Below are positions 22,635-47,670 of a stretch of DNA of 64,000 nt, piece after piece. Every line of letters starts with the position of its first letter. The first letter of the stretch is position 1. Position numbers and translations under genes: made by a program. The stretch comes from Deltaproteobacteria bacterium RBG_13_43_22 (GTDB taxonomy: Bacteria > Desulfobacterota > RBG-13-43-22), in NCBI GenBank assembly GCA_001797675.1, contig MGQB01000001.1, forward strand, positions 321,531-385,530. Reading direction: 5' to 3'. Under the pieces are notes generated by a model. The model was not told the origin of the DNA. It was given only the letters and a program-made list of their open reading frames with translations, and did not search any database.

Positions 22635-22661
22635 GATCAAACCGGTCAAAAGGATATTTCA

Positions 22662-25533: not shown

Positions 25534-25745
25534 GTCTGCCAGATTTATTACCACACCATCGAAGGGCCGTATGAACCCTATTGAAGCTCCCTGCACCAAG
25601 GTGCAGGGAATCTTCCAGGCAAGGAAAGGGTTTATTTGTTGTAGTTCGCTCGCTAACCCACGCAGCAAGCTGCGGGGAATGCGCTCGCTATTCCTGTTCA
25701 AGCCGGAAGTACCAGAACAACCGGGGCATTCAACCCAGTCTTCTG
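25534..25745 (+). pseudogene. Duplicated 3' fragment of dcd (last ~25 codons) interrupted by a dispersed repeat element
   Basis: 25534-25582 and 25700-25745 are near-identical to dcd 22517-22612. The 115-bp element is inserted between ...GAACCCTATT and CAAGCCGG. Confidence 0.55.
25581..25700 (+). repeat. Dual-hairpin dispersed repeat element, copy A (short form, ~118 bp)
   Basis: TTGAAGCTCCCTGCACCAAGGTGCAGGG...CCCACGCAGCAAGCTGCGGGG...CCTGTTCA. Near-identical copies at 30137, 35231 and 47551. Confidence 0.7.
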
Positions 25746-25789
25746 AATAAAGATTTAAAAAATAGGGTCTGACCGGGCAAAAGGATATT

Positions 25790-26263
25790 TTAATTATGAT
25801 TAGAATTCAATTTAAAGGCCCAGAGCTTGCTGCCCAGGAAGTTGCTTAAGGTGGTTATAAAAATGGCGGCCAATTGGGCGATGATCTTGTGCCAATGCTG
25901 AAGATCGACCAGAAACCATAAGACGGCTATATTGATTCCGTAGCTGACCAGGGTAACCATCGCATATTTCAGATATTGGTCGCGGATGGCCTTGATTCCC
26001 TGCTCGTGGGTTTTAAAAGTCCAGCGCAGATTCAGGAAAAAATTGCTGGACATGGCCGTTAAAAAAGAGAAGGTGGCTGCCAGCAGATAATGAACGTTCA
26101 GCAGGTAAATGGAGCCTGAATAAACGGCCAGATTAACCAATACCCCGCTGCTGCCCACCAGGGCGAAGCGGACAAACTGATTTCCGGTGTGGCCGCTGGT
26201 AATCAGACTATTGACCATATAGGCCCAATTGAGTTTCTCGGCATATCCCTTGAAGCGACTCAA
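25790..26263 (-). CDS. GtrA-family polysaccharide-synthesis membrane protein
   Basis: 157 aa protein with 4 TM helices and a GtrA-like N-terminus (VRFALVGSSGVLVNLAVY). Confidence 0.7.
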   Translation of the reverse strand: MSRFKGYAEKLNWAYMVNSLITSGHTGNQFVRFALVGSSGVLVNLAVYSGSIYLLNVHYLLAATFSFLTAMSSNFFLNLRWTFKTHEQGIKAIRDQYLKYAMVTLVSYGINIAVLWFLVDLQHWHKIIAQLAAIFITTLSNFLGSKLWAFKLNSNHN

Positions 26264-28581
26264 CGGCCCTCCAAAAACGGCGCCAGATGGACCTGCAGCC
26301 GTTCCTTATTTTTTTCCAGGGACAAATCCTTAAGCCTTTCCTTTTGACCGGCAATAAGGCTTTCTCGAAGCTCCCGATCCTCCAGTACCAGCGACATCAG
26401 TTCAGCAATGGCTTCGAAGTTTTTTTCGGGAATACCGATCCCGGCTCCTCCCAAAGTTTCAGGAATGCCCCCGGTCAGGTAAGCCATCACCGGCAGACCG
26501 AAAAACATGCTTTCCATCAAGGGGACACAAAATCCTTCGTGTTCGCTTAAACAAAGGTAGAGATGAGAGGCAGTATAATAGGTGATGAGTTCCCGGATAG
26601 AGGCAAAACCGGCAAATAGAACTTTTTCGGTTATGGCCAAATCTTCAACCATCCTTTTAACGGCCCGGCTGTAGTTGCGTACCCCGCTGTCCGTGCCGAC
26701 CAGAATCAGGCGGCTTTCGGGAAGAAGGCGTTTTTGAAAAAGATAAAAAACCTTGATCAGGTCCTCGATTTTTTTCTGAGGTACCAGCCGGCCTACATGA
26801 AGGATGTTGATCTTTCCGTCCTGAAGACTTTTCTTCAGGGGCGCCTCTTGGGCCAGATAATAATTATTGAAATCCAAAAAAATGGGTAGTACCCCGGTCT
26901 TCCTAAATCCCGCCCGTTCCAACTCCTGACGGTTAAAGTCGGACACGCCCAGAGCCAGGTCGAAATAGGGGGCCAGCTTTCTCAATTCCTCATACCCCCA
27001 GGCACAGCGCCTTTCCACTTCGGCATTGATCCCTTTGAAGAAGTGCGCAGGCGTGATATTGTGATAGATCAAAATCTTTCGATCCGGAAGCCGTTTGACA
27101 AACTCCGAAAGTTCGGAACCGATGGAGAAATGAAAGATCAAGATTTTATCGGGACCGCTGATTTCCTTATATTCCTGGAAAGGTCGTGCTGTACCGATTA
27201 ATCTGGAATGGACGTGCTGGGCGTAAATTTCAGAGTCATAACCCCAGTCTTTCAAGGCCTTTTGGATGCCCAGGACATCGTTGCCGATAGCGTCCCCATA
27301 ACTGAAATCAGGGAGCATCTGGTGAATAGCGATGTTGGACTGCTTTGGCCGGGTATTCATGGAATTCTCCTTTGGTCCGGGGTCCCTGGTGCCTTTTTCC
27401 AGAACCGGCCCGGTTTGATGGATCAATTGAATATACCGCCCGCTGATCAAATCCCAATGAAAATGGGACCAAACATATTCACGGCCGTTTCGGGCCATTT
27501 CCTCGGCCAGGTCGGGCTGAGCCCTCATTTCAAGGAGGCATTCTTCAAACTCCAGGTAATCTTTAAAAAACAATCCCCCCTGACTGTTTTGGCAGTGTTC
27601 TACGGTTACCGGACAATGGGCATTGACCAGGACCGGGGTCCCGCACAGCCAGGATTCCATAATGACAATGGAAAAACTTTCCATTACCGAAGGCTGGCAA
27701 AAAAGTTCAGCCCCGCCATAGGCATCATATTTATCTTGTCTGGAGACAAAGCCCAGGTCCAGAATGTCTTTCTGACCGTCGAGAGGGATCTGTACCGGCA
27801 GGTTACCGATTAAAACAAGCTTCAGATCGGAAGGATTCCGTTTTTTAAACAGGACAAAATAATGTATCAACAAAGGGGTGTTTTTCCCGGCGTCTCTTCG
27901 GCCGGCATAGAGAAGATAAGGGTCCTTTATTTGAAACTTCCGGCGAAATCTTTCCGGATCAGTCTGGATCTCCGTATCAATCCCTTCACCGAAAAGAAGG
28001 GCCTGGTCTTTAGTCAAACCATACAAACGCTGACCCAGGTTTTGCTCAAACCGGGTATGAAAAATCATGCCCCGCACCCGGTGAAACAAATCTCCCAGGA
28101 TTTCCATATGGGCATACCCTTCATCGTGAAGGCAGGGGATAATGTAAGAACGATCCGGAAATATCCGAGCCCCATAATAAGTGGTACTGAAAAGGTAGGG
28201 GATAAAGAATAAAAGCGTGTCAGAGCCATGACGCCGGATGTATTGGTAAAGCAAAGGGCTGTTGATCATGTGCTGGAAGAAGAGGTCTTCTTCCTGGCGG
28301 GAAAGTTTCTCTCCGGCCATGATCCGCCGGTTCAGGGAACTGAAAAGTTCCCCGTTTCGGGGACTGACCGGGAACCGTTTGACCGGGACACCGTTGACTT
28401 GAGCCTCTCCGGCCGGATAATCATTCCGCGACCAGTCTCCTTCAAAGTCTTTAACGCAGGTCGTCCAGACCTCCACCGGAATCCCTCTTTGATGGAGGTT
28501 TTCTACGGTTCTCCGGGCCTCGGCTTCAGCCCCTCCAGGGATATCCGGCCCGTACCAGGGGCAGATAAAGGCAATTTTCAT
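26260..28581 (-). CDS. Tandem (double) GT4-family glycosyltransferase
   Basis: 773 aa protein with two glycosyltransferase-group-1 halves (MKIAFICPWYGPDIPGGAE... and a second ...HVGRLVPQKKIEDLI...FCVPLMESMFFGLPVMAY). Confidence 0.8.
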   Translation of the reverse strand: MKIAFICPWYGPDIPGGAEAEARRTVENLHQRGIPVEVWTTCVKDFEGDWSRNDYPAGEAQVNGVPVKRFPVSPRNGELFSSLNRRIMAGEKLSRQEEDLFFQHMINSPLLYQYIRRHGSDTLLFFIPYLFSTTYYGARIFPDRSYIIPCLHDEGYAHMEILGDLFHRVRGMIFHTRFEQNLGQRLYGLTKDQALLFGEGIDTEIQTDPERFRRKFQIKDPYLLYAGRRDAGKNTPLLIHYFVLFKKRNPSDLKLVLIGNLPVQIPLDGQKDILDLGFVSRQDKYDAYGGAELFCQPSVMESFSIVIMESWLCGTPVLVNAHCPVTVEHCQNSQGGLFFKDYLEFEECLLEMRAQPDLAEEMARNGREYVWSHFHWDLISGRYIQLIHQTGPVLEKGTRDPGPKENSMNTRPKQSNIAIHQMLPDFSYGDAIGNDVLGIQKALKDWGYDSEIYAQHVHSRLIGTARPFQEYKEISGPDKILIFHFSIGSELSEFVKRLPDRKILIYHNITPAHFFKGINAEVERRCAWGYEELRKLAPYFDLALGVSDFNRQELERAGFRKTGVLPIFLDFNNYYLAQEAPLKKSLQDGKINILHVGRLVPQKKIEDLIKVFYLFQKRLLPESRLILVGTDSGVRNYSRAVKRMVEDLAITEKVLFAGFASIRELITYYTASHLYLCLSEHEGFCVPLMESMFFGLPVMAYLTGGIPETLGGAGIGIPEKNFEAIAELMSLVLEDRELRESLIAGQKERLKDLSLEKNKERLQVHLAPFLEGR

Positions 28582-28719
28582 CTTGGTTTGTCTGGCCTGT
28601 TTAGTCTGTTTAGTTTTTTGGGTCTATTTATTTTATTTCGTTTAGTGTGCGTCGTAAGGCATAAGGTATAAGAGTCATTGCACCTATTGCCCATAGTCTA
28701 TTGCCTATTGCCTGTTTTT

Positions 28720-29997
28720 TTATTTATATCCCACCACCGCATAATCCTGAAATCCATATATCAGGGCATTGAGACTTCGGACGTTCTCGTTTAAGATCCG
28801 GGCCAGTTCATCCTCATAAGAATCATCCTCCCGGCGGACCATCTCTTTGAGTTTCATCTCTTCGGGAAAAGGAGAGACATAGAGGAGTTCCATCTGCCTA
28901 AATCCAAAAGATTCCCAGAGATAGCGGGCCGCCTCGGGATGGATCGGATTTTTATGGGAAAGATCCAGATAAAAGGCCCCGCTGAAAGTACTTAGACACT
29001 GGGGATTAATAGTCTCCGCCAGCAGGATACCGCCCGGACGCAGTTTGGCAAAACTGACCCTGACCAGTTCCCGAAGCGCTTCCGGTTCCAGGTGTTCAAT
29101 AACCTGGGACAAAAAAATCCCGCCCAAACTCTGGTCCGGTAAACCCCTTAAATGGACCAGGCCGTCTTGGTGAACGGCCTCCAGGCCTTTTGCCCGGCAT
29201 TGGCGGACCATTTCCTGGTTGGTATCCACCCCCGAAGCCGGTATTCCGGCCTCTTTTAAAAGCTCTAGGAATTCCCCCCGGCCGCATCCAATATCCAAAA
29301 CCGGCCCCCGGTCTTTAAAATAGGAAAGAAAATTCTTCTGTTTCCACTTTACGGCCTCTTCACTGCCCCGATGCAACTCTTCGAAACGCACATATTCCGG
29401 TTCCCTGATTTTTGATTTCAGGTCATCCAGCCGGCTGTCCAGTTCAACCACCGGGTTTTTTATGGTTTTAATTTGGGATAAAACCTCTTCAAAAACATTT
29501 TTTTGTGTCTTGAGTTCCTGGGGGATTGCTTCAAGGGATTGGGTTACCTGTTCTCCCCTTTTTTGCAAAAGGGTCATTTCTTTTTCCAGGATAGACCAGC
29601 GATAACGAAAATCCAGGGTCATCTGATTTAGAAGGCGCACCAATTCCACGTTGAACTCCACCTGGCGTTTGAGGACCATCTGGATGTAAGGCTCGGTCAG
29701 TTTACGAAGGATTTTTTTGAATCCGGTAACCAGGGAACCGAGGACCTTGCGGTGAGAGGAGATTTCCGGGGGCCTTCCGGTGTCGCAGAGATAATTAATC
29801 TGGGACAACTGATATTGAATATCCCCTTCCTGCGGATCCGAATCTTCGGATTGTATCTGAAGGGTCATCCGATCGATTCTTTCCAACTCCTCGGAGGAAT
29901 ATTGACCGATCTTTTTTTTCTCTTCGATACGGGAGCGGACCTGCTCCATAATGCGACCCATGTCTACTTTTGGTTTCTCCTGGTTTTCGTGTTCCAT
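28720..29997 (-). CDS. Class I SAM-dependent methyltransferase with N-terminal coiled-coil region (WbdD-like candidate polysaccharide chain terminator)
   Basis: SAM motif VLDIGCGRGEFLELL in the C-terminal half. The N-terminal ~200 aa are heptad-rich and predicted coiled-coil. Adjacent to wzt/wzm. Confidence 0.7.
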   Translation of the reverse strand: MEHENQEKPKVDMGRIMEQVRSRIEEKKKIGQYSSEELERIDRMTLQIQSEDSDPQEGDIQYQLSQINYLCDTGRPPEISSHRKVLGSLVTGFKKILRKLTEPYIQMVLKRQVEFNVELVRLLNQMTLDFRYRWSILEKEMTLLQKRGEQVTQSLEAIPQELKTQKNVFEEVLSQIKTIKNPVVELDSRLDDLKSKIREPEYVRFEELHRGSEEAVKWKQKNFLSYFKDRGPVLDIGCGRGEFLELLKEAGIPASGVDTNQEMVRQCRAKGLEAVHQDGLVHLRGLPDQSLGGIFLSQVIEHLEPEALRELVRVSFAKLRPGGILLAETINPQCLSTFSGAFYLDLSHKNPIHPEAARYLWESFGFRQMELLYVSPFPEEMKLKEMVRREDDSYEDELARILNENVRSLNALIYGFQDYAVVGYK

Positions 29998-30136
29998 AAA
30001 AAATCTTTCAATTAAGATTTGAAGTTATATCTGACTCAATCCCTGGTCCGAGTTGCGGGCAGTTAAAAAAGGACTTGGTTTCTTAACCCGTAATGCGTAA
30101 CCCGTAACAAGGTTTTTCATCTATTTTGTTATGCTT

Positions 30137-30258
30137 ATTGAAGCTCCCTGCACCAAGGTGCAGGGAATCTTCCAGGCAAGGAAAGGGTTTATTTGTTGTA
30201 GTTCGCTCGCTAACCCACGCAGCAAACTGCGGGGAATGCGCTCGCTATTCCTGTTCAA
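30137..30258 (+). repeat. Dual-hairpin dispersed repeat element, copy B (short form)
   Basis: About 97% identical to copy A. Intergenic between the methyltransferase and wzt. Confidence 0.7.
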
Positions 30259-31492
30259 CTATCCAGCGATGGGGGATTCGATAGATCCCGGCGTCTTTTT
30301 TAGTCGAGCGGACGGCAAAGGACATACAACCGCTTTGATAATCGTAATTGTGGCCGTCGTGGGCATGAACCGCCACATCCAGCAAATAATTCCCTTCTAT
30401 CAAATGAACCTGCTCGAGCTTGATCTTGATTTGACCGGTTTCTTGAAAGGGAGGCAGCACCACCTCATCCAGGTCGGTGTTGGTCCCATAGCAACAGGTC
30501 CCTTTCCCGTCAAAAACACCTACGCCGAAAACGCAATCCAGAGTGGGACGATTAACTTGAAAATCCATCTCCACCAATATATCCTCTCCGTCTTGAAAGA
30601 CGTGTCTTTCCTGACCCCGGCTGTCACGGAGACGGACCCGGATAATTTCGATGTCTCCGTTACCCCACCGGTCTTTGGAAATCAATCTTTCTGTTCCGCT
30701 GGAGGCTGCTTTTGATTGTTCTTCTTTATAGCGTTCGTCATCCCTTCGGGCCACCGCTTGCCGGTAGGCGTCTATCACCTGACGGGGTTCTCCCTGGGCC
30801 TGGATACAACCCGAGTCCAGCCAGAGGGCCTGATCGCAAAACCGTTCCACGGTGGGCAGATCATGGGTCACCAGGACGATCGTCTTCCCCGACTTCTTGA
30901 AAGTCGTCATCCGGTCAATACATTTCCGGGAAAAGGATTCGTCTCCCACGGCCAGGACCTCATCGACCAGCAAAATATCCGGATCGACATTGACGGCCAC
31001 GGAAAACCCCAGGCGGACATACATGCCCGAGGAATAGGTCCGGACCGGTACATCAATAAAAGACTCCAACTCGGCAAAACGAACGATCCGGTCAAACCGT
31101 TTTTCAATTTCTTTGCGGCTCAATCCCAGAATGGTCCCGTTGATAAACACATTCTCCCGGCCGGTGAACTCCGGATGAAATCCGGCTCCTAATTCGATTA
31201 AAGAAGAAACCCGCCCGTTCATCTGAACCGTCCCGGAATCCGGTTTATAAATTCCGGTCATGACCTTGAGGAGTGTGCTTTTACCGGATCCGTTCCGGCC
31301 GATGACCCCCAGACTGATTCCCTGGGAAATTTCCAGATTCAGGTCCTGAAAAACAACCCTGGTTTCTTCTTTGGGTCGGCCCTTTCGTGAAAAGGGATTC
31401 AGGAACAGGGATTTTAAGGTAATGTAGTCGCGGCGCAAGGTGGTTTGTTTAAATCCTTTGGAGATCCCTTTTAAGATGACGGCTGGGGGCAT
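30245..31492 (-). CDS. wzt: O-polysaccharide ABC transporter ATP-binding protein Wzt with C-terminal carbohydrate-binding extension
   Basis: Walker A (GRNGSGKST), LSGG-like and Walker B motifs, plus a ~160 aa C-terminal extension as in Wzt/TagH. Confidence 0.85.
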   Translation of the reverse strand: MPPAVILKGISKGFKQTTLRRDYITLKSLFLNPFSRKGRPKEETRVVFQDLNLEISQGISLGVIGRNGSGKSTLLKVMTGIYKPDSGTVQMNGRVSSLIELGAGFHPEFTGRENVFINGTILGLSRKEIEKRFDRIVRFAELESFIDVPVRTYSSGMYVRLGFSVAVNVDPDILLVDEVLAVGDESFSRKCIDRMTTFKKSGKTIVLVTHDLPTVERFCDQALWLDSGCIQAQGEPRQVIDAYRQAVARRDDERYKEEQSKAASSGTERLISKDRWGNGDIEIIRVRLRDSRGQERHVFQDGEDILVEMDFQVNRPTLDCVFGVGVFDGKGTCCYGTNTDLDEVVLPPFQETGQIKIKLEQVHLIEGNYLLDVAVHAHDGHNYDYQSGCMSFAVRSTKKDAGIYRIPHRWIVEQE

Positions 31493-31498
31493 GGATGG

Positions 31499-32287
31499 TT
31501 ATACCTTCTCTGGAAAGGTTTCTTTATACCGTTCAAAAAAGAACATGCCGATTCCCAACAAAATCAGAGAAAGGGCCATAAAAACTAAAAGAATTCTTAG
31601 GTCCGGTGCGCGGTTATAAAAAAAAATGTCCTGATAAGACAAGGTGATTTGGGTCATGGGAATGAGTTTCACCCATTTATTAAAAGGGGGCGGTACCTGG
31701 GAAAGGGGATAGAGAATGGGGGTTAAAAAAAACAAAAGGGTTAAAAAATTAGCCAGGATATGTTGGACATCCCTGAAAAAGACATTGATAGTAGCCAGTA
31801 TCAAAACCAAACCTTCGATAAACAACAAATGGAGAAAAAGGATCAACGGCAGCCAGAGCAGGGGCCACCCTTGATAGACCCCCATAGCCCAAAGGAAACC
31901 AAAAAGAATCGGCAAACTCAACAGGTAGTTTAACAAGTTGGCTAAAATTTTAACTATCGGCAGGACCTGACTGGGAAAGAGGACCTTGGTAACAAGGCTG
32001 CCGCCGGCGGTAATCGAGTTGGTCCCCTCCAATAAAGAGGAAGAAAACCAGATCCAGGGGAGTAACCCGACAAACATGAATCCGGCATAATGTTCCATCC
32101 GAATTCTAAGATAAAAATTAAAAACCAGAGCATAGACCCCCAAGAGCAAAAGGGGATTTAGAAAAGTCCATAAGAACCCAAGGAAAGACCCTCGATAACG
32201 GGCTTTCAGTTCCCGGATCACGAGACTGTTCACCAGACTTCGGTAGCGAATCAATTCCTGAATATGTTGACGGATCAATGGGAACAT
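31499..32287 (-). CDS. wzm: ABC-2 type polysaccharide export permease Wzm
   Basis: 262 aa protein with 6 TM helices (ABC-2 family), immediately upstream of wzt. Confidence 0.8.
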   Translation of the reverse strand: MFPLIRQHIQELIRYRSLVNSLVIRELKARYRGSFLGFLWTFLNPLLLLGVYALVFNFYLRIRMEHYAGFMFVGLLPWIWFSSSLLEGTNSITAGGSLVTKVLFPSQVLPIVKILANLLNYLLSLPILFGFLWAMGVYQGWPLLWLPLILFLHLLFIEGLVLILATINVFFRDVQHILANFLTLLFFLTPILYPLSQVPPPFNKWVKLIPMTQITLSYQDIFFYNRAPDLRILLVFMALSLILLGIGMFFFERYKETFPEKV

Positions 32288-32413
32288 GTTTTTGACTCTA
32301 GGAATTCAGAAGCCAGAATTAAAACACAACAACGAGTTCGAATTACAAAGGCATTGGGAAGACATTTTTCATTCTCTATTCTGGATTCTGACTCCTGTCT
32401 TCTGGCTTCTGTT

Positions 32414-33811
32414 TTAATACGCTTCCTTGCTGAATACTCCCTTCCAAAGGGTCTTGATTAATATTTTTGAGTCCAAAGGGAGGGACCAGTTTTCAATATA
32501 ATACAGATCAAACTCGATTCGTTTTTCCAAAGAGGTGTTCCCCCGCCAGCCGTTAATTTGGGCCCATCCGGTCATCCCGGCCTTCATTTTATGGCGCAGC
32601 ATGTATTTGGGAATCTTGTCTTTGAAACTTTGAATCAACTCCGGACGCTCCGGCCGGGGGCCGACCAAGCTCATTTCCCCTTTGATAACATTAAAAAGTT
32701 GCGGCAGTTCATCCAAACTGAATCTTCTGATGATCCGTCCCACCAGGGTTCTTCTGGGGTCTTCTTTTTTTGCCCAAACCGGTCCGGTCTCCTTTTCCGC
32801 TCCGACCACCATGGAGCGAAACTTAAGCATTTCAAAGACACGACCATCCAGCCCCATCCGTATCTGACGATACAAGACCGGGCCTTTCGATGTGACTTTG
32901 ATGGTCAGGGCAATCAACAAGAGTAAAGGGGAAAACAAAATCAGAACCAGACAGGCCAGAAGGATGTCGAAGGACCTTTTCAGAATTCGATTCCAGCCGA
33001 CCATGGGGGATTCCCTTAAATTGATAAAGGGCAGGCCCTCAAATTCCTCAATCCCGCCCCGAAGACTGATAAACCGATATAAATCAGGAACAATCTTGAT
33101 ATCCACCATCTCGTCCCGAATCCGGTTCAGCAACTCTTCCAGTTTCTGATGAGCGGTTAAGGACAAAGCGAATATGACCAGATTGATCCCCTGATCTTGG
33201 ATCACCTGATCGATCTCTTCATACAATCCGAGCACCTCGATCCCCTGAATATGGGTTCCCACCTTTTGAGGCACCTGGGTTAAAAACCCACTGATCGTCA
33301 GGCCTAATTCAGGATGCTTCCGGATGGTTTCAGCGACACCCTGGGCTAATTCTCGAACTCCAACGATTAAGACCCGTTCTGATCTGAGATGCTTTTTTTG
33401 CAGGAAGAGGTAATAGCCTTTAAAAAAAAGACGGCTTAGAGAAAGAAACAGAAGACTCAGGAGACCAAAAAGGAGGAAGACCAAGCGTGAAAATTCGGTC
33501 CTTTTAAAGAAAAAGGTCAGAAAAACCAGGATCATCAAAGCGATGAAGTTGGCCTTAAACAGGGTCATGATTTCCTGGGTTCGATTAAAAAAACGGCGGT
33601 ACACCCCGGTTAGATGAAGGGTACCTATCCAGATGGTCAGAACAAAAACAAGCAGGATCAAATAATCGCTGAGGAGAGGGATGCCCTTGGTTACCGGGAT
33701 GAAGGGGGCATAAAATCTGAGATAAAAAGCAGCAATCCAACAAGCCGTGAGAATAAAGAGATCGTTAAAAAGAAGTAGGGATTGAAATAACTGCAATCTT
33801 TTTTTAAACAT
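32414..33811 (-). CDS. Undecaprenyl-phosphate hexose-1-phosphate transferase (WbaP/bacterial sugar transferase family)
   Basis: N-terminal TM bundle. The C-terminal catalytic domain carries DELPQLFNVIKGEMSLVGPRPERP and YYIENWSLPLDSKIL. Confidence 0.8.
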   Translation of the reverse strand: MFKKRLQLFQSLLLFNDLFILTACWIAAFYLRFYAPFIPVTKGIPLLSDYLILLVFVLTIWIGTLHLTGVYRRFFNRTQEIMTLFKANFIALMILVFLTFFFKRTEFSRLVFLLFGLLSLLFLSLSRLFFKGYYLFLQKKHLRSERVLIVGVRELAQGVAETIRKHPELGLTISGFLTQVPQKVGTHIQGIEVLGLYEEIDQVIQDQGINLVIFALSLTAHQKLEELLNRIRDEMVDIKIVPDLYRFISLRGGIEEFEGLPFINLRESPMVGWNRILKRSFDILLACLVLILFSPLLLLIALTIKVTSKGPVLYRQIRMGLDGRVFEMLKFRSMVVGAEKETGPVWAKKEDPRRTLVGRIIRRFSLDELPQLFNVIKGEMSLVGPRPERPELIQSFKDKIPKYMLRHKMKAGMTGWAQINGWRGNTSLEKRIEFDLYYIENWSLPLDSKILIKTLWKGVFSKEAY

Positions 33812-33878
33812 GTTTTAAAGGCCTCTTTACGGCTTAAAGGAGAAGGGGAGATCAGGCAGGAGAAAAAAAGGGCCTTTC

Positions 33879-34241: not shown

Positions 34242-34275
34242 TACTCCTCTCCTATCTCTTGACTCACTTCTTTAC

Positions 34276-34824: not shown

Positions 34825-34833
34825 TATCCTTTC

Positions 34834-35230: not shown

Positions 35231-35398
35231 TTGAAGCTCCCTGCACCAAGACTTCGGCGAGCTCAGTCGAGTCGGTGCAGGGAATCTTCCAGGCAAGGAA
35301 AAGGTCTATTTATTGTATTTCGCTCGCTAACCCACGCAGCAAGACTTCGACGAGCTCAGTCGAGACGCTGCGGGGAATGCGCTCGCTACACCTGTTCA
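35231..35398 (+). repeat. Dual-hairpin dispersed repeat element, copy C (long form, ~168 bp: both hairpin loops carry the same ~21-nt extension ACTTCGRCGAGCTCAGTCGAG)
   Basis: Same ends and spacer as copies A, B and D, but each hairpin loop is extended by an almost identical 21-nt palindromic insert. Confidence 0.7.
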
Positions 35399-35419
35399 GC
35401 AAAGGCCCAATAAAAGCCG

Positions 35420-36949
35420 ATGATCGCTAAAATTTTCAGTAGTGCCATCTCAGGGATTGATGCCTATATCGTTCAGGTTGAAGTCGATATTGCCAGGGGG
35501 TTACCGGCCTTTTCCACGGTTGGATTGCCGGAAGGGGCTGTCCGGGAAAGTAAAGATCGGGTCAAATCGGCCATTAAGAATTCAGGTTTTGAATTCCCCA
35601 GCCACCGAATTACCGTTAATCTGGCTCCGGCCGATATAAAAAAAGAAGGGTCGGCCTTTGACCTTCCTATAGCCATAGGTATTCTTACGGCTGAAGATTT
35701 AATTTCTTCCACCATCGTGTCGTCATACCTTATTTTAGGGGAGCTTTCTCTGAATGGGGAAATTAAGCCGATTCGAGGCACATTGCCCACCGCTTTATCG
35801 GTTAAGGATAACGGCTTTCGTGGACTGATTGTCCCCGAGGCCAATGCTCTTGAGGCCTCCGTGGTAGAAGGGATTGAGATCATTCCGGCGCAAACGCTTG
35901 GACAGGTGACTGAATTTCTTAGAGGCCTCTCACCGATCCAACCATTAAACCAGGAACCAAAACGGCCCTTTTCTCTTCTTCAGGATTATCCTTTTGATTT
36001 CAATGAGGTGAAAGGCCAGGAACAGGTCAAACGGGCACTGGAAATTGCAGCCGCCGGAGGTCATAACATCATTATGGTCGGACCTCCCGGTTCCGGAAAA
36101 ACCATGCTGGCCCAAAGGCTGCCCTCTATTTTGCCCGACCTGACTTTCGAAGAGGCCTTGGAAACCTCGAAAATTTACAGTGTCATCGGTCTGATGCCGA
36201 GAGATCAGGCCCTGATTACTTCCCGGCCCTTTCGATCCCCTCATCATACGGTTTCCGACGCCGGTCTGATTGGAGGCGGGCAAGTCCCCCGCCCCGGTGA
36301 AGTCAGCCTGGCCCATAACGGGGTTCTGTTTTTGGATGAATTACCTGAATTCAAAAAAAATGTCTTGGAGGTTCTTCGTCAGCCCCTCGAAGACGGTCGG
36401 GTGACCATTTCCCGGGCCATCACTTCCCTGACCTATCCGGCCCGCTTTATGCTGGTGGCGGCCATGAATCCCTGCCCCTGCGGGTTTCTCTCGGATCCCC
36501 AGCGGGAATGTCATTGCACCTATCCGCAGATCCAGCGCTATAAATCAAAAATATCCGGTCCCCTGTTGGACCGTATCGATCTCCACGTAGAGGTCCCTTC
36601 GGTGAAATTCAAAGAACTGGCTGGCCAGTCCGATGGAGAATCCTCGAACACCATCCGGGAACGGGTCAAAGCCGCCCGGGAAAGGCAAAAAACCCGCTTT
36701 CACAGCAAAACCCTTTTTTGTAACGCCCAGATGGGACCGAGGCTGATCAAAAAATATTGCACCCTGTCTCCGGACTCCCAAAACCTTCTGGAACAGGCCA
36801 TGGAATATCTGGGATTAAGTGCCCGGGCCTATCATCGCATATTAAAGATCTCCCGAACCATTGCGGATTTGGAGAATAGCGAGGATATTGCTCCTCATCA
36901 TATCTCGGAAGCCATCCAATACCGGAATTTGGACCGCCGTCTCCTTTAA
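35420..36949 (+). CDS. comM: YifB/ComM family Mg-chelatase-like AAA+ ATPase
   Basis: 509 aa protein with Lon-like N-terminus, Walker A (GPPGSGKTM) and a C-terminal Mg-chelatase ChlI-like domain. Confidence 0.85.
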
Positions 36950-37057: not shown

Positions 37058-37139
37058 ACCAATACCCCCCCGATAATCCATTTCAAGGATGGGGTGGTTA
37101 TGGATCCGGCCCGAGGGACCGGATAATAGGGTAAGTCCT

Positions 37140-40925: not shown

Positions 40926-40933
40926 AAAATGAA

Positions 40934-40975
40934 AAGCCCCTTGACCACCATTGCTGATGGCCAAGGGGCTTTTCG
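40934..40975 (+). terminator. Rho-independent terminator (likely bidirectional) between convergent mrcA and the CBS-domain gene
   Basis: AAGCCCCTTG...CAAGGGGCTTTTC: a 10-bp GC-rich stem followed by a T-run, with an A-run on the other side. Confidence 0.6.
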
Positions 40976-40997
40976 AACTGCTTGGACTGGAAAAAGA

Positions 40998-41666
40998 TTA
41001 CACGTCTTGAAGCGTATCTTTAACCATATAAAGAAGGATAAAGTTTTTGTCCAGCTCTTCGGATAAGGCTTTTAATTTGTGCTCAGGTATTTCCTTGATC
41101 CGGATATACACGTGACGGCAATTCTCCTCACACATATCATAAGAGGTCAGGATACTGACCATTCGGCCTCCATGTTTTCGTATCACATCGGACACCTCTT
41201 TTATGGAGCCCGGCCGATCCTCCAGGTTAAAAGCAAATTGGATACCCCCTCGATAAATACCGGTCAGGGAAATCAGGACTTTGAAGATATCCCCCTGAGT
41301 GATGACTCCGACCACCTTTCCTTTGTCGTTGACGACCGGCAGTCCTGAAATCCTATGTTCCAGCATCTTAACGGCCGCCTTTTCCACCGTTTCTTCCGGC
41401 CCAACGCTGACTAAATTTTTGTTCATAAGATCTTTTATTTTTAATTCCGAAAGCAGGTAATACAGTTCATGAATATCTAAAGTGGTAGCCTTGGAAGGGG
41501 ATGCTTCTTTAATATCCCGATCAGTAATCATTCCAACCAGTTTCCCTTTACGCATGACCGGTAGGCGTCGGATATTATTTTCCTTCATTATCTGAGAGGC
41601 CTTCATCATGGAAGTATCTTCATCTACGGTTATGACATCGCTGGTCATCCATCCTTTAACTAACAT
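40998..41666 (-). CDS. CBS-pair plus ACT domain protein
   Basis: Two CBS motifs (VITVDEDTSMMKASQIMKENNIRRLPV; NLVSVGPEETVEKAAVKMLEHRISGLPV) followed by an ACT-like C-terminus. Confidence 0.7.
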   Translation of the reverse strand: MLVKGWMTSDVITVDEDTSMMKASQIMKENNIRRLPVMRKGKLVGMITDRDIKEASPSKATTLDIHELYYLLSELKIKDLMNKNLVSVGPEETVEKAAVKMLEHRISGLPVVNDKGKVVGVITQGDIFKVLISLTGIYRGGIQFAFNLEDRPGSIKEVSDVIRKHGGRMVSILTSYDMCEENCRHVYIRIKEIPEHKLKALSEELDKNFILLYMVKDTLQDV

Positions 41667-42019
41667 GGTTATCCTCCGCTGGTAAGAATTAAAAGCTCTG
41701 ACATCCCCAAATTACAACATCATGTTTGAATCCCCAATTCTTAGAAAATTTTATAGCAATTACCAACATTGTCAAGTTTTTTTTGGAACAAAGAGGGGTG
41801 TTTTTAAACCCCCTTTACAGAATGCAGTTCACCTCAGGAAGATTCCTTAGATAGTCCTGGGATCGTTTTCCTCTATTTCTTTTCATGCCTTCCTTCAAGA
41901 CCAAAGGGATTTAAAGAAAAGGGGCTTCCCCAAACCGCCGCCTCTTTGTATTGACCATGCCTTTCCCTTGAACTCTCAAATCATTCTATCATCGCCAATC
42001 CTATTGGTGATGAATCAAT

Positions 42020-42670
42020 TTAACTTTCCTCCCGGTTGTGATCGATCCAGTAAGCCCAGGCTACCAACAGCCATTGAAGGAAACCGATATAGACAATCGG
42101 TTTCACCGCCGGCGGCGGGGGACCGAAAAGATTGCCGAGATAAGTCATTATTAAAAAAGCCACTAATCCCCATAAGGCCCATCGGCCGGTTTTATTTTTG
42201 GCTTTGGTTGAGGTTGCATAAAGATAAACCCCGACAACAAACAACCCCCCTTCGACCAGGAGGGTCCCGATCAGGGAATTCCACAGACCAAGTCCCACTT
42301 TGGTATCCAGGCCGGGCAGCAAGGGCAGGTCCGGGCGATGGGTGAACAAATCCAGGATCCAGTGACCGACCACCAGAAGTCCAAGCCATAGGGCTGTTTT
42401 CAAATCTTTTTTGATGACCCAATAGATCCCTCCGAACAGCAACCCCCAGATAAGCACTGAAAGTAACCCATGGGAAATGGGATAATGGGTAAAATTAAGG
42501 GGGGTAACCGCCGTATTGCCGGGCTCGATCAACATCTGTTCCCAACCCAGTAAAAGCAGAAGCGGAAAAAGCAGATCGATGAACTGCGTTGCCAAAAACA
42601 AGGTTCCCAATGACGCTTTGGGTGCAACCTTCTTGGCTGCAAAACCCAGGGCATAATGACCGATATACAT
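42020..42670 (-). CDS. Integral membrane protein, possibly DUF457/YdjM-like metal-dependent hydrolase
   Basis: 216 aa protein with 5-6 TM helices and conserved His residues (HYPISHG, VGHWILDLFTHRPD). Confidence 0.4.
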   Translation of the reverse strand: MYIGHYALGFAAKKVAPKASLGTLFLATQFIDLLFPLLLLLGWEQMLIEPGNTAVTPLNFTHYPISHGLLSVLIWGLLFGGIYWVIKKDLKTALWLGLLVVGHWILDLFTHRPDLPLLPGLDTKVGLGLWNSLIGTLLVEGGLFVVGVYLYATSTKAKNKTGRWALWGLVAFLIMTYLGNLFGPPPPAVKPIVYIGFLQWLLVAWAYWIDHNREES

Positions 42671-42691
42671 GCCGTTTCCTTTCCATGTTTT

Positions 42692-43435
42692 TTATTGGCT
42701 TTCGATACGGAAAGCATACTGGATAACATCGGACGGACACCCGTCGATGCAGGTTCCGCAAAGGATACATTCGGAATTTTCCATTCTATCTTGATGGACC
42801 ATAGTTTCTACCGGAAGGCTCATCGGGCAGTTTTCGGTGCAGGTATGACAGTGCGTGCATTTCTCGGGTTCTGCTTGAAGCCGAAGAGAGGCCCAATGAA
42901 AAAGGTTTCTAATCTTCCTGCCAATTATCATAAAGGGGGCCATCCAGCAAAGATGATGGCAGAACGACCTTTTCCCGAAAATAAACGACGGCAGGACGAT
43001 TAAGAGGAGAACCACCAAATAGGCGATGAGGGCGGGAAGATCTCCGATAGAAAAGCCGTAATGGGTCTGGTAAAAAAAATCGACCTGGGAATATCCTCCC
43101 CCTATGATGGCCAGAATGACTATAGTACCTACCCAGGGGATCCAGATCAACCACTTGATAGAATCCCCTTTAAGGACCCTTTTCTCTCGGGCTGAAAATA
43201 GGGCCTCCTGACAGCCGGCACCCGGACAGACCCATCCGCAATAAGCCCGTCCAAGAAGCAAAGCGCTGAGAAACAGGAGCAGAAACAGGATGAAACTCCC
43301 GTTGATAATACCGCCCTGGGTGGCTTGAATAATCATTACCGGGGACAGATAATAGAAGAGTGCCGGAAACAAAAAAAATGAAGACAGAATAATTCCTTGT
43401 CTCAGCTTTTGTCTGGATTTCATGGTTCGACTCAA
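42692..43435 (-). CDS. Membrane-bound 4Fe-4S ferredoxin-type protein (NapH/MauN/CcoG-like)
   Basis: GRAYCGWVCP motif plus two CxxCxxCxxxCP clusters (CTHCHTCTENCP; CILCGTCIDGCP), with TM helices. Confidence 0.6.
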   Translation of the reverse strand: MSRTMKSRQKLRQGIILSSFFLFPALFYYLSPVMIIQATQGGIINGSFILFLLLFLSALLLGRAYCGWVCPGAGCQEALFSAREKRVLKGDSIKWLIWIPWVGTIVILAIIGGGYSQVDFFYQTHYGFSIGDLPALIAYLVVLLLIVLPSFIFGKRSFCHHLCWMAPFMIIGRKIRNLFHWASLRLQAEPEKCTHCHTCTENCPMSLPVETMVHQDRMENSECILCGTCIDGCPSDVIQYAFRIESQ

Positions 43436-43519
43436 AAAAGAAGTTTATTCGTTCAGCAGTTTTCCGGAAACCGATCGATCACTCGGTTGAGAATCTGATC
43501 CAACCGAGTCCTGCCCCTT

Positions 43520-43903
43520 TTAAGGGGCATAGCTGGACCGGGCTTGTATGCCCCAACGCCCGTCTTTCCTGGTAACGATCCACAGGGAATGATGAACCGC
43601 ATATCTGGAACCGTCCGCCTGGTAGCGGCTGAATTGGATATTAAAATGCACCTTCACCGGTGAAGCATGGATGACTTCCACCGAATCCAGAGTGCTATGG
43701 TGCCATCCCTCGTGCTTGGTCAGGTAGTTGAGTACCGAATCAAGGGGCAGGTATTCAGAGGCGTTTTGAACGATAGCGACCTGGCCTTTGTCGTTGATGC
43801 GGATATGAGGAAAATGATGGGTGTTCAGGTGTGCTTCACCGTCATGGGCGTTAAAGGCGTCAAAAAAGGCCTTAATGGCTTTGGCGGCTTCGACTTCAGA
43901 CAT
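43520..43903 (-). CDS. NTF2-like/SnoaL-like small protein
   Basis: 127 aa protein. Its N-terminus (AIKAFFDAFNAHDGEA) is typical of the SnoaL/NTF2 fold. Confidence 0.4.
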   Translation of the reverse strand: MSEVEAAKAIKAFFDAFNAHDGEAHLNTHHFPHIRINDKGQVAIVQNASEYLPLDSVLNYLTKHEGWHHSTLDSVEVIHASPVKVHFNIQFSRYQADGSRYAVHHSLWIVTRKDGRWGIQARSSYAP

Positions 43904-44126
43904 GGGCTCTCCTCCAAAATATTAATTATCTCGAAATAATGACTACTTTTCCGGGTAGCTACTAACCAACAATAATAGAAATTATTTGCTTACGAGTGGC
44001 GGGTTACGAGTTACCCGTTTTAAAGAAAGGGTTTCGATTTACAAACCCGCAACCCGTAAATAATTATTGGTGGAGATAAATTCTCGGACTTAACCAATTA
44101 AGAATCTACACTAAGACCGTTAATAA

Positions 44127-44528
44127 CTATTCCCACTTTCCCAAAAGGGCAAATACGGATTCAGGAATGCGTACCAATTTACCTTCCTGATCCAAACAGG
44201 CATGGACCGTGTATCCTTGAACCAAAAGATCGTTCTCCTGGTTCAAAATTCTATAGTCAAAGCGCATAGAGGCCTTGCGAACGAACCCCACACCGGTATT
44301 GATCAATAAAATATCATCATAGCGGGCCGATTTACTATATTTGCAAAAGGCCTCGGTAACCGGCAATAAATAGCCCATGGCCTCTATCTCGGCATAGGGA
44401 AGGCCCAAATGGCGGATCAATTCGGAACGGCCGATTTCAAACCAGCGCAGATAATTGGCATAATAGGCCATTTTCATGGAATCCACATCACCGTAAATAA
44501 CCCGGTAAGTCGTCTGAAAAAATTTCAT
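44127..44528 (-). CDS. Acyl-CoA thioesterase, 4HBT/YbgC family
   Basis: 133 aa protein with a hotdog-fold motif (YRVIYGDVDSMKMAYYANYLRWFEIGR). Confidence 0.75.
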   Translation of the reverse strand: MKFFQTTYRVIYGDVDSMKMAYYANYLRWFEIGRSELIRHLGLPYAEIEAMGYLLPVTEAFCKYSKSARYDDILLINTGVGFVRKASMRFDYRILNQENDLLVQGYTVHACLDQEGKLVRIPESVFALLGKWE

Positions 44529-44820
44529 TTGGTTACTCCTGAACTCGAAAAAAGTGAAGGCCGAGGAATCCTCTTTTCAGTGTTGTCCACTTAAATGCCC
44601 TTAGCTTCTCTGCCGGGCCAAATCTCAAATTATGTTTCAGGAGCAGGCCCCTGGGGGCCTCCAGGACCAAAGCTGGAAATTGACCCAGGTGAAGGCTCTA
44701 TTCCCGATTAACTTAGCTTTTGGGCCGGGTTGGGGCGAGAGATTACCTTTTGGACAACTTTGAAAAGAGGACCCCTCGGCCCCTGTACACTGGAGGTTAA
44801 CTTTTAAATGGTTATCATCC

Positions 44821-46044
44821 CTAACGGACTCCTAAAAACCAGGGCATCAGTTGATCCCCATTTATAAAAGCGACCTCTCCCTCAAAAGCCGATCTTTCCG
44901 AAAAACCCCTTTTTCGAACCGGCCGGGACCGGTCTTCAGAGCAGAAGATCGAAAAAGGGACCGGTTCCCTGGTGTGGGTCATCACCTGGACAGGCGTGAA
45001 ATGATCGGTAACAATCATCAGGGAATAGGCTTCAAAATGGTTCAATCCTTCCAGGACCGGCCCCACGACCTCCCGATCGAAGGCTTCAATGGCCTGGATC
45101 TTCTTTTCCCGGCTTCCTTCATGAGAAGCCTCATCCGGGGCCTCCACATGAACATAGACCAGGTCTTTCTCGGCCAGGAAGGCCAAGGCCTTTTCAGCCT
45201 TCCCCCGGAAATTGGTGTCTAAATATCCGGTTATCCCTTCCACAAAAATGGATTCCAACCCGGCAGACAATCCTATCCCTTTCAAAAGATCCACGGCGGA
45301 AATCACTCCCCCTCGAAGGCCGAATCTTTTCAGGAAAGAGGGCATGGCCGGAGTTTTTCCTTGACCCCACAACCAAATGGAATTGGCTGGAACCAGGCCT
45401 CGGCCCTGCCTTGACTGATTAACCGGGTGTTGGCTCAAAAAGGACCAGGAACGGCGCATAAGATCCACAATCGGTCCCAACTCCCCCTGGGTATTCAAAT
45501 AGCCCGTCACATCCTGCCCGGTCAGGTCATGCGGCGGTGTGGTCTTGACCGATGGATCAGCCCCGGTCCAGACCAGGATATGCCGATAACTGACCCCTGG
45601 ATAGAAAGATAAATTGGGGTGAGCTAAGAATCCCTTGAGGTCGTTGATTAAAATCTTGGCTTCTTCCGTAGAAATATGCCCGGCGCTGTATGAGTTCATC
45701 CTTACCGTCTCATTTTCCCGGTGGTCCAGGCAAACCAGATTACAGCGGAAGGCCACGTCCTCTTCCTTTAGTCGGATCCCCATACTAACCGCTTCCAAGG
45801 GCGCACGGCCTGAATGGTAGACCAATGGGTCATATCCCAGGAGGGAAAGATTGGCAATATCACTTCCCGGTTCACAGGCTGAGGGTACGGTTTGGGCCCA
45901 CCCCATAATCCCCCGGGAGGCCGCGGTATCCATATTGGGCGTATGAGCCGCTTCCAAGGGAGTCTTTCCGTCCAGGGCCTCCTGAGGGTAATCCCCCATC
46001 CCGTCCCCGACCAAAATAATATATTTTCTGTCTTTCGATTTCAT
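44821..46044 (-). CDS. Cofactor-independent phosphoglycerate mutase, archaeal-type (ApgM family), candidate non-orthologous homoserine kinase
   Basis: 407 aa protein. The N-terminus (YIILVGDGMGDYP) and metalloenzyme domain are typical of ApgM. Located immediately downstream of hom. Confidence 0.75.
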   Translation of the reverse strand: MKSKDRKYIILVGDGMGDYPQEALDGKTPLEAAHTPNMDTAASRGIMGWAQTVPSACEPGSDIANLSLLGYDPLVYHSGRAPLEAVSMGIRLKEEDVAFRCNLVCLDHRENETVRMNSYSAGHISTEEAKILINDLKGFLAHPNLSFYPGVSYRHILVWTGADPSVKTTPPHDLTGQDVTGYLNTQGELGPIVDLMRRSWSFLSQHPVNQSRQGRGLVPANSIWLWGQGKTPAMPSFLKRFGLRGGVISAVDLLKGIGLSAGLESIFVEGITGYLDTNFRGKAEKALAFLAEKDLVYVHVEAPDEASHEGSREKKIQAIEAFDREVVGPVLEGLNHFEAYSLMIVTDHFTPVQVMTHTREPVPFSIFCSEDRSRPVRKRGFSERSAFEGEVAFINGDQLMPWFLGVR

Positions 46045-46144
46045 AAAAAAATACAGATCTCTTTAGATGGATCAAAGTTACGGGTTGGGTGTTTCGGGTT
46101 TGAAAACCAAAAGCCTTTAACCGGCAACCCGTAACCCGTCACTT

Positions 46145-47449
46145 TTAATTTTCCACCCGGACAATCACCGTTCGATCGGTTATCACCGCTAGACGGTCAA
46201 TCTCCTGGATGGCCTTCTGAACGTCTGATTCTCTGGCCTCGTGGGTCATCATGACAATAGGAACGGATCCTTCAATCTCTCTGCCTTTTTGGATCACCGA
46301 GGCCACACTGATTTGATTGGCCCCAAGGATGCCGGCGATGGTCGAAAGGACCCCGGGTCGATCCAGGGCGGAAAATCGAAAATAATAGTGGGTCATCACT
46401 TCCTGAAAGGGTTTAAAGGACAAACCTTTTTCTTTAAATCGTTGAATCGAAAGATTCTGGGGTATTCTTTGGGCAATCCCCTTGTTGATATTTCGTCCCA
46501 TATTGACCAGGTCACTGACTACCGCGCTTCCGGTCGGCATCATTCCGGCGCCCTGTCCGTAGAGCAAAATATCCCCCACCGAATCTCCTTTGATATGAAG
46601 GGCATTATAGGCCCCTTGAACATTGGCCAACATATGGCTTTTAGGGATCATGGTCGGGTGGACCCGGGCTTCCAACAGACTCCCCTCCTTTCGGCAGATA
46701 GCCAGAAGTTTGATGGAGTATCCGAATTCCCTGGCAAAGGCAATGTCCAATGCCCCGATTCGAGTGATGCCTTCCACAAATACCGCTTCGGGGTTTAATG
46801 GAGCTCCATAGGCCAGATACATCAAAATGGAAAGTTTATGAACCGTGTCCAACCCTTCTACATCCAGGGTCGGATCGGCCTCGGCATAGCCCATTTGTTG
46901 GGCCTCCTTTAGGGCCGCTGAATAAGGCAGTTCTTGTTCGGTCATCCGGGTCAGGATAAAATTGGAGGTCCCATTGAAGATCCCAAAAATGCTTTCAATT
47001 TCATTGGCCACCAACCCCTGTTGCAGGGCCAGAATAACCGGGATACCACCGCAGACGCTGGCTTCAAAGCCGACATCCAATTTACTGTCCATGGCCTTCT
47101 TGAAAATCTCATTCCCTTTGTGAGCCAGCAAGGCCTTGTTGGCCGTAACCACATGTTTCCCTTTTTCCAAAGCCTTTAAAATAAAACTACGGGCCGGTTC
47201 CAGACCCCCGATCAATTCTATGACAATGGATATATCCGGATCTTCAAGAATTTGTTCCACTTGATCCGTCAGAACCCCTTTGGGAACCGGGACACCCCGA
47301 TCCCGATTCAAATCCTGATCGGCGATCCGTTTTAATTTTATCGGAACCCCGACCAGGGAACTAAGAAGGTCGCCTTTTTCACGTAAAATCTTTACCACCC
47401 CGGTTCCTACGGTGCCAAAACCGATTAAACCTACCTGAATTTCTTTCAT
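46145..47449 (-). CDS. hom: Homoserine dehydrogenase
   Basis: 434 aa protein with NAD-binding motif (GLIGFGTVG), catalytic domain and a C-terminal ACT domain. Confidence 0.9.
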   Translation of the reverse strand: MKEIQVGLIGFGTVGTGVVKILREKGDLLSSLVGVPIKLKRIADQDLNRDRGVPVPKGVLTDQVEQILEDPDISIVIELIGGLEPARSFILKALEKGKHVVTANKALLAHKGNEIFKKAMDSKLDVGFEASVCGGIPVILALQQGLVANEIESIFGIFNGTSNFILTRMTEQELPYSAALKEAQQMGYAEADPTLDVEGLDTVHKLSILMYLAYGAPLNPEAVFVEGITRIGALDIAFAREFGYSIKLLAICRKEGSLLEARVHPTMIPKSHMLANVQGAYNALHIKGDSVGDILLYGQGAGMMPTGSAVVSDLVNMGRNINKGIAQRIPQNLSIQRFKEKGLSFKPFQEVMTHYYFRFSALDRPGVLSTIAGILGANQISVASVIQKGREIEGSVPIVMMTHEARESDVQKAIQEIDRLAVITDRTVIVRVEN

Positions 47450-47550
47450 GATCCCCTCACACGATTCTATAGGTTGGATTCAAAGATCCTTTTTAAACCC
47501 TCATGCCCGCCTGGACGGGTGCTACAAAACACAATGATTAAATTTTAGGA

Positions 47551-47670
47551 TTGAAGCTCCCTGCACCAAGGTGCAGGGAATCTTCCAGGCAAGGAAAGGG
47601 GTTATTTGTTGTAGTTCGCTCGCTAACCCACGCAGCAAGCTGCGGGGAATGCGCTCGCTATTCCTGTTCA
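47551..47670 (+). repeat. Dual-hairpin dispersed repeat element, copy D (short form)
   Basis: About 98% identical to copy A. Intergenic between hom and the aminotransferase. Confidence 0.7.

Follow-up and report, generated by a model that had tools for sequence, protein, structure and literature searches.

The 64,000-nt stretch of the Deltaproteobacteria bacterium RBG_13_43_22 genome analysed here (contig MGQB01000001.1, positions 321,531 to 385,530; hereafter the window) carries four copies, c1 to c4, of a dispersed repeat with two hairpins. These repeats are copies of a real, recently mobile element. The element encodes no protein, and it is very probably a non-autonomous derivative of an IS200/IS605-type transposon, resembling the palindrome-associated elements (PATEs) of Haloquadratum walsbyi. 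The sequence family is new, the class is not, and the element has been active recently in an uncultured deltaproteobacterial lineage. The copies and their flanks establish its mobility, precise boundaries, target specificity and end architecture, as well as the complementarity of guides and cleavage sites and the covariation of guide and target.

A repeat scan placed the four copies in one family. Three of them (c1, c2 and c4) are 98–100% identical over about 120 nt, and in the alignment c3 proved to be the same element, lengthened by 24 nt within both hairpin loops. The four copies share one strand of the window, and c1 alone matches the 116-nt master sequence of the family exactly. A preliminary description of this DNA had listed four near-identical copies in the same orientation, and we found all of them at the positions given there. 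Its hairpin 1 (CCCTGCACC/GGTGCAGGG), its bulged hairpin 2 (CCCaCGCAGC/GCTGCGGGG) and the CGCTCGCTA direct repeat flanking hairpin 2 are likewise present. A permissive BLAST search of the window returned no full or partial copies beyond c1 to c4.

The mobility of the element is documented by three independent and precise empty sites, all of which read ATT(T)CAAG and differ from their occupied counterparts by 116 or 117 nt. Site (a) is a paralogue of the c1 site that lies inside the window: CCCTATTCAAGCC corresponds to CCCTATT[GAAGC...CCTGTT]CAAGCC, a net gain of 116 nt. Site (b) is empty in the window and in a third sample (CACCTATTTCAAGAGG), and it is occupied by an additional copy in contigs of this organism from two samples (L002 6686-6808 and L003 6074-6196, compared with window 18916-18924; L numbers denote loci outside the window), with a net gain of 117 nt and TTT on both sides, where the other copies have TT. 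Site (c) is that of c4, which is absent from an otherwise identical site in sample ERZ27256953 (L018: TTTTAGGATTCAAGGGACC); the window has gained 116 nt. Two of the three empty sites, (b) and (c), are strain polymorphisms. All three are consistent with insertion behind a top-strand TTGAA, without any duplication. Since CAA is already present in the three empty sites, it belongs to the target and not to the element, and the AA/TT shared by the sites results from the overlap of the target TGAA with the element end TCAA. The preliminary description had read TTGAA...TTCAA as short terminal inverted repeats, an interpretation that the empty sites overturn.

The same picture emerges from 83 independent sites. 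In the orientation of the preliminary description, positions -2/-1 are TT at 83 of 83 sites and position -3 is A (71 sites) or T (12 sites); on the other side, +1 to +3 are C (72), A (80) and A (72), and conservation ends there. The flanking TT and CA described for the four window copies are therefore a feature of the entire set. Written on the top strand, positions -5 to -3 are T (72), T (80) and G (72), and on the opposite side only +1 is constrained (T 71, A 12). Flank conservation is thus asymmetric, with a one-sided target, and the conserved T/A just 3' of it is paralleled by the selectivity of IS608 and ISDra2 at +1. Terminal inverted repeats are absent: whichever of the three possible registers is used, the ends, GAAGCTCC... 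and ...TTCCTG(TT), show no inverted similarity. What looked like a TTGAA/TTCAA pair arises because the target (TTGAA) resembles the 3' cleavage site of the element (TTCAA).

Read on the minus strand of the window, the element takes the form TTGAA / CAGGAATAGCGAGCG-CATT-(CCCCGCAGC TT GCTGCG(T)GGG)-TTAGCGAGCGAA...GGAA-GATT-(CCCTGCACC TT GGTGCAGGG)-AGC-TTCAA / T, where slashes mark the cleavage sites, the outer brackets enclose the hairpins and about 55 nt lie between the bulged left hairpin and GGAA-GATT. The two hairpins are similar and stand in direct orientation. From the left cleavage site to the foot of the left hairpin there are 19 nt, a spacer that ends in the guide CATT, and the right hairpin is followed by 8 nt ending in TCAA at the right cleavage site. 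The left guide CATT can pair with the target TGAA through C:G(-3), A:T(-4) and T:A(-1), and the right guide GATT with the terminal TCAA through G:C(-3), A:T(-4) and T:A(-1). In other words, the cleavage sites differ only at -3 (G or C), and the guides differ only at the base that pairs with it (C or G). Both sites also have T-4 and A-2. A 2-nt ambiguity permits three registers, but only cleavage after TGAA/TCAA fits all six pairs, and it also gives the 19-nt spacing.

This arrangement closely follows that of IS608, which is cleaved 3' of TTAC, 19 nt 5' of its left hairpin, and after TCAA, 10 nt 3' of its right hairpin; the IS608 hairpins measure 21–22 nt, and each has directly 5' a 4-nt guide by which the cleavage site is recognised through base pairing (PMC3201880). 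The IS608 structures show position 1 of the guide paired with -3 and position 2 paired with -4; the pairs are C-3:G-35 and T-4:A-34 at the right end and, at the left, A+16:T-3 and A+17:T-4. T-4 and A-2 also interact (PMC3201880, PMC5934647). A pair between guide position 4 and -1 follows from the IS608 sequences AAAG/TTAC and GAAT/TCAA. Our element shares with IS608 the lack of inverted repeats and of target duplication, insertion 3' of a tetranucleotide, two similar imperfect subterminal hairpins of 20–21 nt in direct orientation, a left cleavage site 19 nt 5' of the hairpin foot, a right cleavage site a few nucleotides 3' of the other hairpin, 4-nt guides that pair with -3, -4 and -1, and the retention of T-4 and A-2. 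At the right end, the two elements also have the cleavage site TCAA and the AG 3' of the hairpin in common. It differs from IS608 in having neither tnpA nor tnpB and only 116 nt in all, in its target (TGAA, or TTGAA, instead of TTAC), in its guides (CATT/GATT, with T and not A at position 3), in the right spacing of 8 instead of 10 nt, in an extrahelical base that is confined to the left hairpin, and in the orientation bias, which was reported for IS608 and ISDra2 and was not detected here.

The active (top) strand is most likely the minus strand of the window, because both the end architecture and the asymmetry of the flanks support it; the preliminary description was written on what is most likely the opposite, non-functional strand. 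We also considered the plus strand under the IS608 scheme and rejected it. It would leave only 6 nt from cleavage site to hairpin, its guide would be AGCT, with no pairing to the ATT flank, and the conserved CAA 3' flank would be unexplained.

The guide itself varies among copies. Where the left guide is CATT, the target is TGAA at 71 of 77 sites; where it is AATT, the target is TTAA at all four independent sites, which belong to two subfamilies (Fisher p = 9.5e-6). A single C-to-A change in the left guide accompanies the switch from TGAA to TTAA, a natural retargeting. The same behaviour has been described for engineered IS608 guides (PMC3201880). In an alignment of 18 sequences with their flanks, the guide-target pair 12/30 is G:C in 12 sequences, U:A in four and unpaired in two. 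Across this alignment the proposed structure is paired in 95.6% of the cells, and six pairs are changed on both sides, compared with 1.5 in shuffled alignments; none of 500 shuffles reached six.

To describe the distribution of the family we used short exact patterns. A 20-mer internal to the element occurred in two metagenome-assembled genomes (MAGs) labelled 'uncultured delta proteobacterium' and in two chance matches among 185,579 species representatives. A terminal 20-mer matched 111 metagenome stretches, from wetland, peat, aquifer and sediment samples. Four patterns gave no match in viral contigs, and there was none in phage records. One contig set, Ga0154639, corresponds to the MAG 'Deltaproteobacteria bacterium RBG_13_43_22' and contains at least 33 exact-seed copies, 19 of 33 being identical to the 116-nt master. 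The estimate of hundreds of copies per genome in the preliminary description is not borne out by this one sampled genome. Taken together, the metagenome and MAG loci yielded 84 insertion sites, distinguished by flanking sequence (in a few cases, one site counted again because of a single-nucleotide polymorphism), and 44 distinct sequences. The identical master was present at 37 of the 84 sites, which indicates a recent burst, while the variants range from 71 to 164 nt.

A more distant relative, 73% identical, is present as one copy in each of three Candidatus Manganitrophus (Nitrospirota) replicons. It retains ATGAA before the left end, a spacer of 19 nt that closes with CATT, the bulge position, TTAG, GAAGATT and AGCTTCAA up to the right end, and both of its stems differ by compensatory changes. 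The direct repeat at its left hairpin is ACGCGCG and not AGCGAGCG, which may be meaningful or a GC-rich coincidence. The coordinates of this relative and of the features in the window are collected in Table 1.

Table 1. Copies of the element, their parts and insertion sites (window positions unless another sequence is named)
Feature	Position	Strand	Remarks
Unoccupied site, TTTCAA on plus strand	18918..18923	-	site (b); between MarR and CoA-ligase genes
Unoccupied paralogue of c1 site	22564..22569	-	site (a); ATTCAA on plus, TTGAAT on minus strand; inside intact dcd 22113-22634
c1	25581..25696	-	116 nt; minus strand CAGG...GCTTCAA; inside duplicated 3' fragment of dcd
c1 right-end subterminal hairpin	25589..25608	-	hairpin 1 of the preliminary description; CCCTGCACC TT GGTGCAGGG, then AGCTTCAA
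c1 right guide GATT (plus: AATC)	25609..25612	-	pairs with the element's terminal TCAA
c1 left-end subterminal hairpin	25657..25677	-	hairpin 2 of the preliminary description; CCCCGCAGC TT GCTGCG(T)GGG, one extrahelical T
c1 left guide CATT (plus: AATG)	25678..25681	-	4 nt 5' of left hairpin foot
c1 target pentanucleotide TTGAA	25697..25701	-	directly 5' of c1 left end; core tetranucleotide TGAA
c2	30138..30253	-	one substitution in left hairpin; at end of gene 30245-31492(-)
c3	35231..35394	-	long variant, 164 nt; target CTGAA
c4	47551..47666	-	116 nt; site empty in another sample's contig (L018)
Manganitrophus relative	L135 3985-4106 (CP114557.1 17602-17706); also CP114554.1, CP114562.1		between TMEM165/GDT1 gene and TPR gene

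Many copies deviate from the master in a modular fashion. Small hairpin modules, GTCCCGC-loop-GCGGGAC and GTCACGCC-loop-GGCGTGAC, substitute parts of either end hairpin, and the same module can occupy both end hairpins of one copy, as do a 24-nt tip in c3, where nearly the same palindromic module lengthens both tips, and TCCCGC-loop-GCGGGA in L044 and L099. Duplication of a hairpin-tip module was noted in window 35231-35394, L044, L055, L091, L099 and L115. The idea that the modules are independent mobile hairpins was dropped, as they are found almost only inside the element family. Other forms are products of recombination: hairpin-to-hairpin recombinants are 'terminal-only' forms of 50–71 nt (L025, L102, L078), and recombination between the AGCGAGCG direct repeats deletes the left hairpin (L083, L049, L125). 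Finally, L028 181-450 is a head-to-tail array of three units of a second subfamily with right-end/left-end junctions; its plus-strand 3' end (the element's left end) is CGCTCGCTCCTGGATT, and the first unit is a 46-nt single-hairpin form. These junctions look as if a circle junction had become fixed in the chromosome.

Such features are familiar from PATEs, which derive from IS200/IS605-type transposons and undergo repeat-mediated core deletions, reduction to terminal-only forms and insertions into their palindromes (PMC3119063). PATE-like elements that are mobilised in trans have also been described in Geobacillus stearothermophilus (PMC10055086). Like PATEs, our element is too short for a transposase, has neither inverted terminal repeats nor target duplications, carries mutually similar palindromes near its termini, the 5' one lying further from its end than the 3' one, and shows strain-specific insertions. 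It likewise forms a 'homogeneous' family of near-identical copies, with terminal-only versions from palindrome recombination and with sequences inserted into the palindromes. It differs from the described PATEs in its bacterial hosts (the deltaproteobacterial lineage that includes RBG_13_43_22, and the Nitrospirota relative), in lacking sequence relation to described families, and in that no linked IS605-type parent was identified in the loci examined and no omega-RNA-like part was detected in Rfam at E up to 10. Moreover, its palindrome inserts are tip modules of 15–24 nt that are almost confined to the family, whereas PATE inserts are independent repeats of about 110 bp. The preliminary description had proposed a novel MITE/REP-like family (MITE, miniature inverted-repeat transposable element; REP, repetitive extragenic palindrome). 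What stands of this is a dispersed, mobile, MITE-like non-coding element with two related hairpins; since it matches the definition of PATEs, it is not a new kind of element. The same description had suggested checking for hairpin recognition by an IS200/IS605-type TnpA, which is the explanation favoured here, given the IS608-like ends and their guide pairing.

By analogy with IS608, transposition would proceed by peel-and-paste. A Y1 HUH transposase (TnpA), presumably supplied in trans, would bind both subterminal hairpins on single-stranded DNA, and each guide would pair with its cleavage site: CATT with TGAA in the flank, GATT with the TCAA that ends the element. A single-stranded circle of the top strand would then leave, with the junction GGGAGCTTCAA-CAGGAATAGCG, and the donor would be resealed seamlessly. 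Pasting of the circle 3' of another TGAA would produce neither duplications nor inverted repeats.

Several observations weigh against this reading. A cognate Y1 (HUH) TnpA with matching ends was not found in the window, the 111 metagenome stretches or the MAG loci (about 1 Mb). All matches to the terminal 20-mer in this material are short elements, there is no transposase among the window genes, and tblastn with IS608 and IS200 TnpA sequences as queries gave no matches in the roughly 1 Mb of loci. A search for orphan ends of a full-length element yielded decayed or truncated copies only, and the complete 37-kb Manganitrophus replicon contains no transposase. Nor was an orientation bias of the kind reported for IS608 and ISDra2 seen among the copies. 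Relative to local genes we counted 35 copies in one and 29 in the other orientation, with no GC-skew bias, and neighbouring copies on RBG_13_43_22 contigs form 11 pairs in the same and 8 in opposite orientation. These counts were made on contigs; for position relative to genes, the four neighbour configurations numbered 19/14/12/9. A first impression that copies are generally co-oriented was dropped after this counting, and as no bias was seen, the shared orientation of the four window copies is probably due to chance (p = 1/8). Mismatch counts did not single out a strand either (G.T versus A.C, 7 versus 7), with the right hairpin biased by the search seed through which the copies were found. 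At guide position 3, the activating A of IS608 is replaced by T. The insertion at site (b) measures 117 and not 116 nt, with an extra A/T at the junction; imprecise cleavage, homopolymer slippage or an assembly difference are possible causes. Lastly, variants that carry a hairpin module in place of the right guide GATT are still found at several different sites, which the simple model does not predict.

The search for a partner enzyme did uncover RAYT-like Y1 genes or gene fragments that share contigs with copies (L099, L105, L021, L059), one of them 145 nt from a copy. As partners they were rejected, another point that counts against our interpretation: they have unrelated inverted repeats of their own, and those in L099 and L059 are fragments. 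A homologue search with the L099 fragment and three context look-ups led to the same unrelated GGGGTCGGGCCAC ends. This Y1_Tnp family is multi-copy, with many truncated members (L105 6120-7231, L021 11700-12790, L133 1330-2040, L134 240-260), and is flanked by inverted GGGGACATAATAC.../GGGGACGCTGTTAAC.../GGGGTCGGGCCAC repeats (GGGGAC/GGGGTC). Alongside our element, these genomes carry this second HUH-type repeat system, which is unrelated to it. That our family spreads without any canonical IS200/IS605 TnpA, through a RAYT-like Y1 protein or another HUH enzyme of the host, is in our view unlikely. If true, the swapping of hairpin modules, including the replacement of the right guide and the double tip of c3, would represent elements switching enzymes, and the family would be a natural example of 'orphan' single-strand transposons that re-tool their recognition hairpins.

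The repeat also brings to mind bacterial interspersed mosaic elements (BIMEs). It could be a domesticated REP/BIME-like sequence and not a true transposon derivative, in which case its enzyme would be a RAYT (TnpA_REP), another member of the Y1 HUH superfamily. The resemblance is real: both are short, palindromic and intergenic, and both come as mosaics of palindromic units with many modular variants; RAYT-like genes occur in the same genomes, in part on the same contigs. However, the RAYT-like genes in L105, L021, L133 and L134 carry their unrelated GGGGAC/GGGGTC repeats, and the distinct ends, the specific 4–5-nt target, the seamless insertion and the covarying pairing of guide and target are features of IS200/IS605 elements that are undescribed for REPs. 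In addition, the hairpins are direct and not inverted within an asymmetric 116-nt unit, and no GTAG-type head is present at the stems. We give this origin only a slim chance. A similarly slim one falls to a conservative site-specific recombinase (serine, tyrosine or IS110-type DEDD) that would join a circle junction CCTG-TT-GAAG to A-TT-CAA by a TT crossover. Such an enzyme would account for the TT (once TTT) that borders every copy left and right and stands once in each empty site, and for the likeness of target and putative circle junction (TT-C-AA versus TT-G-AA). What it leaves unexplained is the covariation of a nucleotide 20 nt inside the element (AATG/AATT) with the first flanking base, as well as the IS608-like 19-nt and 8-nt spacings and the complementarity of guide and cleavage site at both ends. 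The hairpins are direct repeats and not inverted binding sites, and in the loci examined a recombinase gene stands beside no copy. For the bridge-RNA systems of IS110-type elements in particular, the hairpins lack internal loops and the target comprises only 5–6 nt, and we rejected them. Integron attC sites were also rejected, here from the sequence alone: the ends do not fit RYYYAAC/GTTRRRY, and the copy spacing of 4.5–12 kb is wrong.

A classical MITE, moved by a DDE transposase with a target-site duplication of 2–3 bp (TT/TTT), seems highly improbable to us. The TT or TTT on both sides and the inserts of 116 and 117 nt would fit a duplication of variable length. Yet terminal inverted repeats are absent in any register, the apparent duplication is 2 or 3 nt and not fixed, and neither the strongly one-sided target conservation nor the covariation of guide and target would be explained; a DDE transposase with the same ends was not found in the loci examined. 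Equally improbable is a structured small RNA or cis-regulatory family whose hairpins are kept for an RNA function. The compensatory changes in the hairpins would be expected of such a family, and some copies do lie in untranslated positions, such as c3, 22 nt before an ATG, and c2 at a stop codon. Against it, the copies have no match at the gathering threshold in Rfam 15, in agreement with the preliminary description, which had matched the repeat to no family it recognised; even at E up to 10 the best match is a chance one to CRISPR-DR7, with 16.9 bits against a threshold of 37. The position and orientation of copies relative to genes are inconsistent, as the neighbour configurations given above illustrate, and neither hairpin is followed by a T-run on either strand. 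The presence/absence polymorphism and the identical copies at dozens of sites argue for selfish spread instead.

The window itself is ordinary chromosome, with dcd, O-antigen-type ABC transporter genes, ATP synthase, amino-acid biosynthesis genes and two tRNAs. The copies had been described as intergenic throughout, which does not hold for c2: in a Wzt-like ABC ATPase gene, 30245-31492(-), it separates the stop codon from the last sense codon. There (30245-30258), the insertion turned GTT GAA|TAA into GTT GAA CAG GAA TAG, adding Gln-Glu and an element-derived stop codon. About 22 nt separate the end of c3 from the downstream ATG of a Mg-chelatase/ComM-like gene, 35420-36949 (window 35395-35420), and the copy occupies the promoter or 5' leader of this gene. 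The open reading frames (ORFs) called across the copies are by-products of the repeat, as had been suspected, and public gene calls skip them.

Some further observations concern the surroundings of the copies. A direct repeat of about 200 nt, consisting of the 3' end of dcd and downstream DNA with 91–95% identity, is present at 22512-22718 and 25528-25849. It brackets the genes 23383-25155 (PF03601 family) and 25156-25476, and its second unit holds c1; the dcd-fragment repeat and the bracketed genes look like a duplication-bounded gene insertion. Short GAACCCTTGAA-type repeats at 47722-47761, 60214-60253 and 60286-60312 are intergenic and occur in both orientations, and similar strings adjoin element copies in other loci (e.g. 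L035, L049). They may be a separate small repeat family. Elsewhere in the window, the minus-strand ORF 6400-8784 (794 aa) combines a PALP domain (cysteine-synthase-like, pyridoxal phosphate-dependent) with a complete cysteinyl-tRNA synthetase, an unusual fusion.

The element explains a conspicuous repeat in the uncultured deltaproteobacterial lineage of RBG_13_43_22 and its relatives. With its boundaries, strand and target (TGAA) assigned, it can be masked and used for strain typing, and the spurious ORFs are flagged; at least two insertions are polymorphic within 30 kb of the window. For the IS200/IS605 family, it offers a clean natural illustration of guide-directed target choice, with an end logic that is conserved between two phyla.

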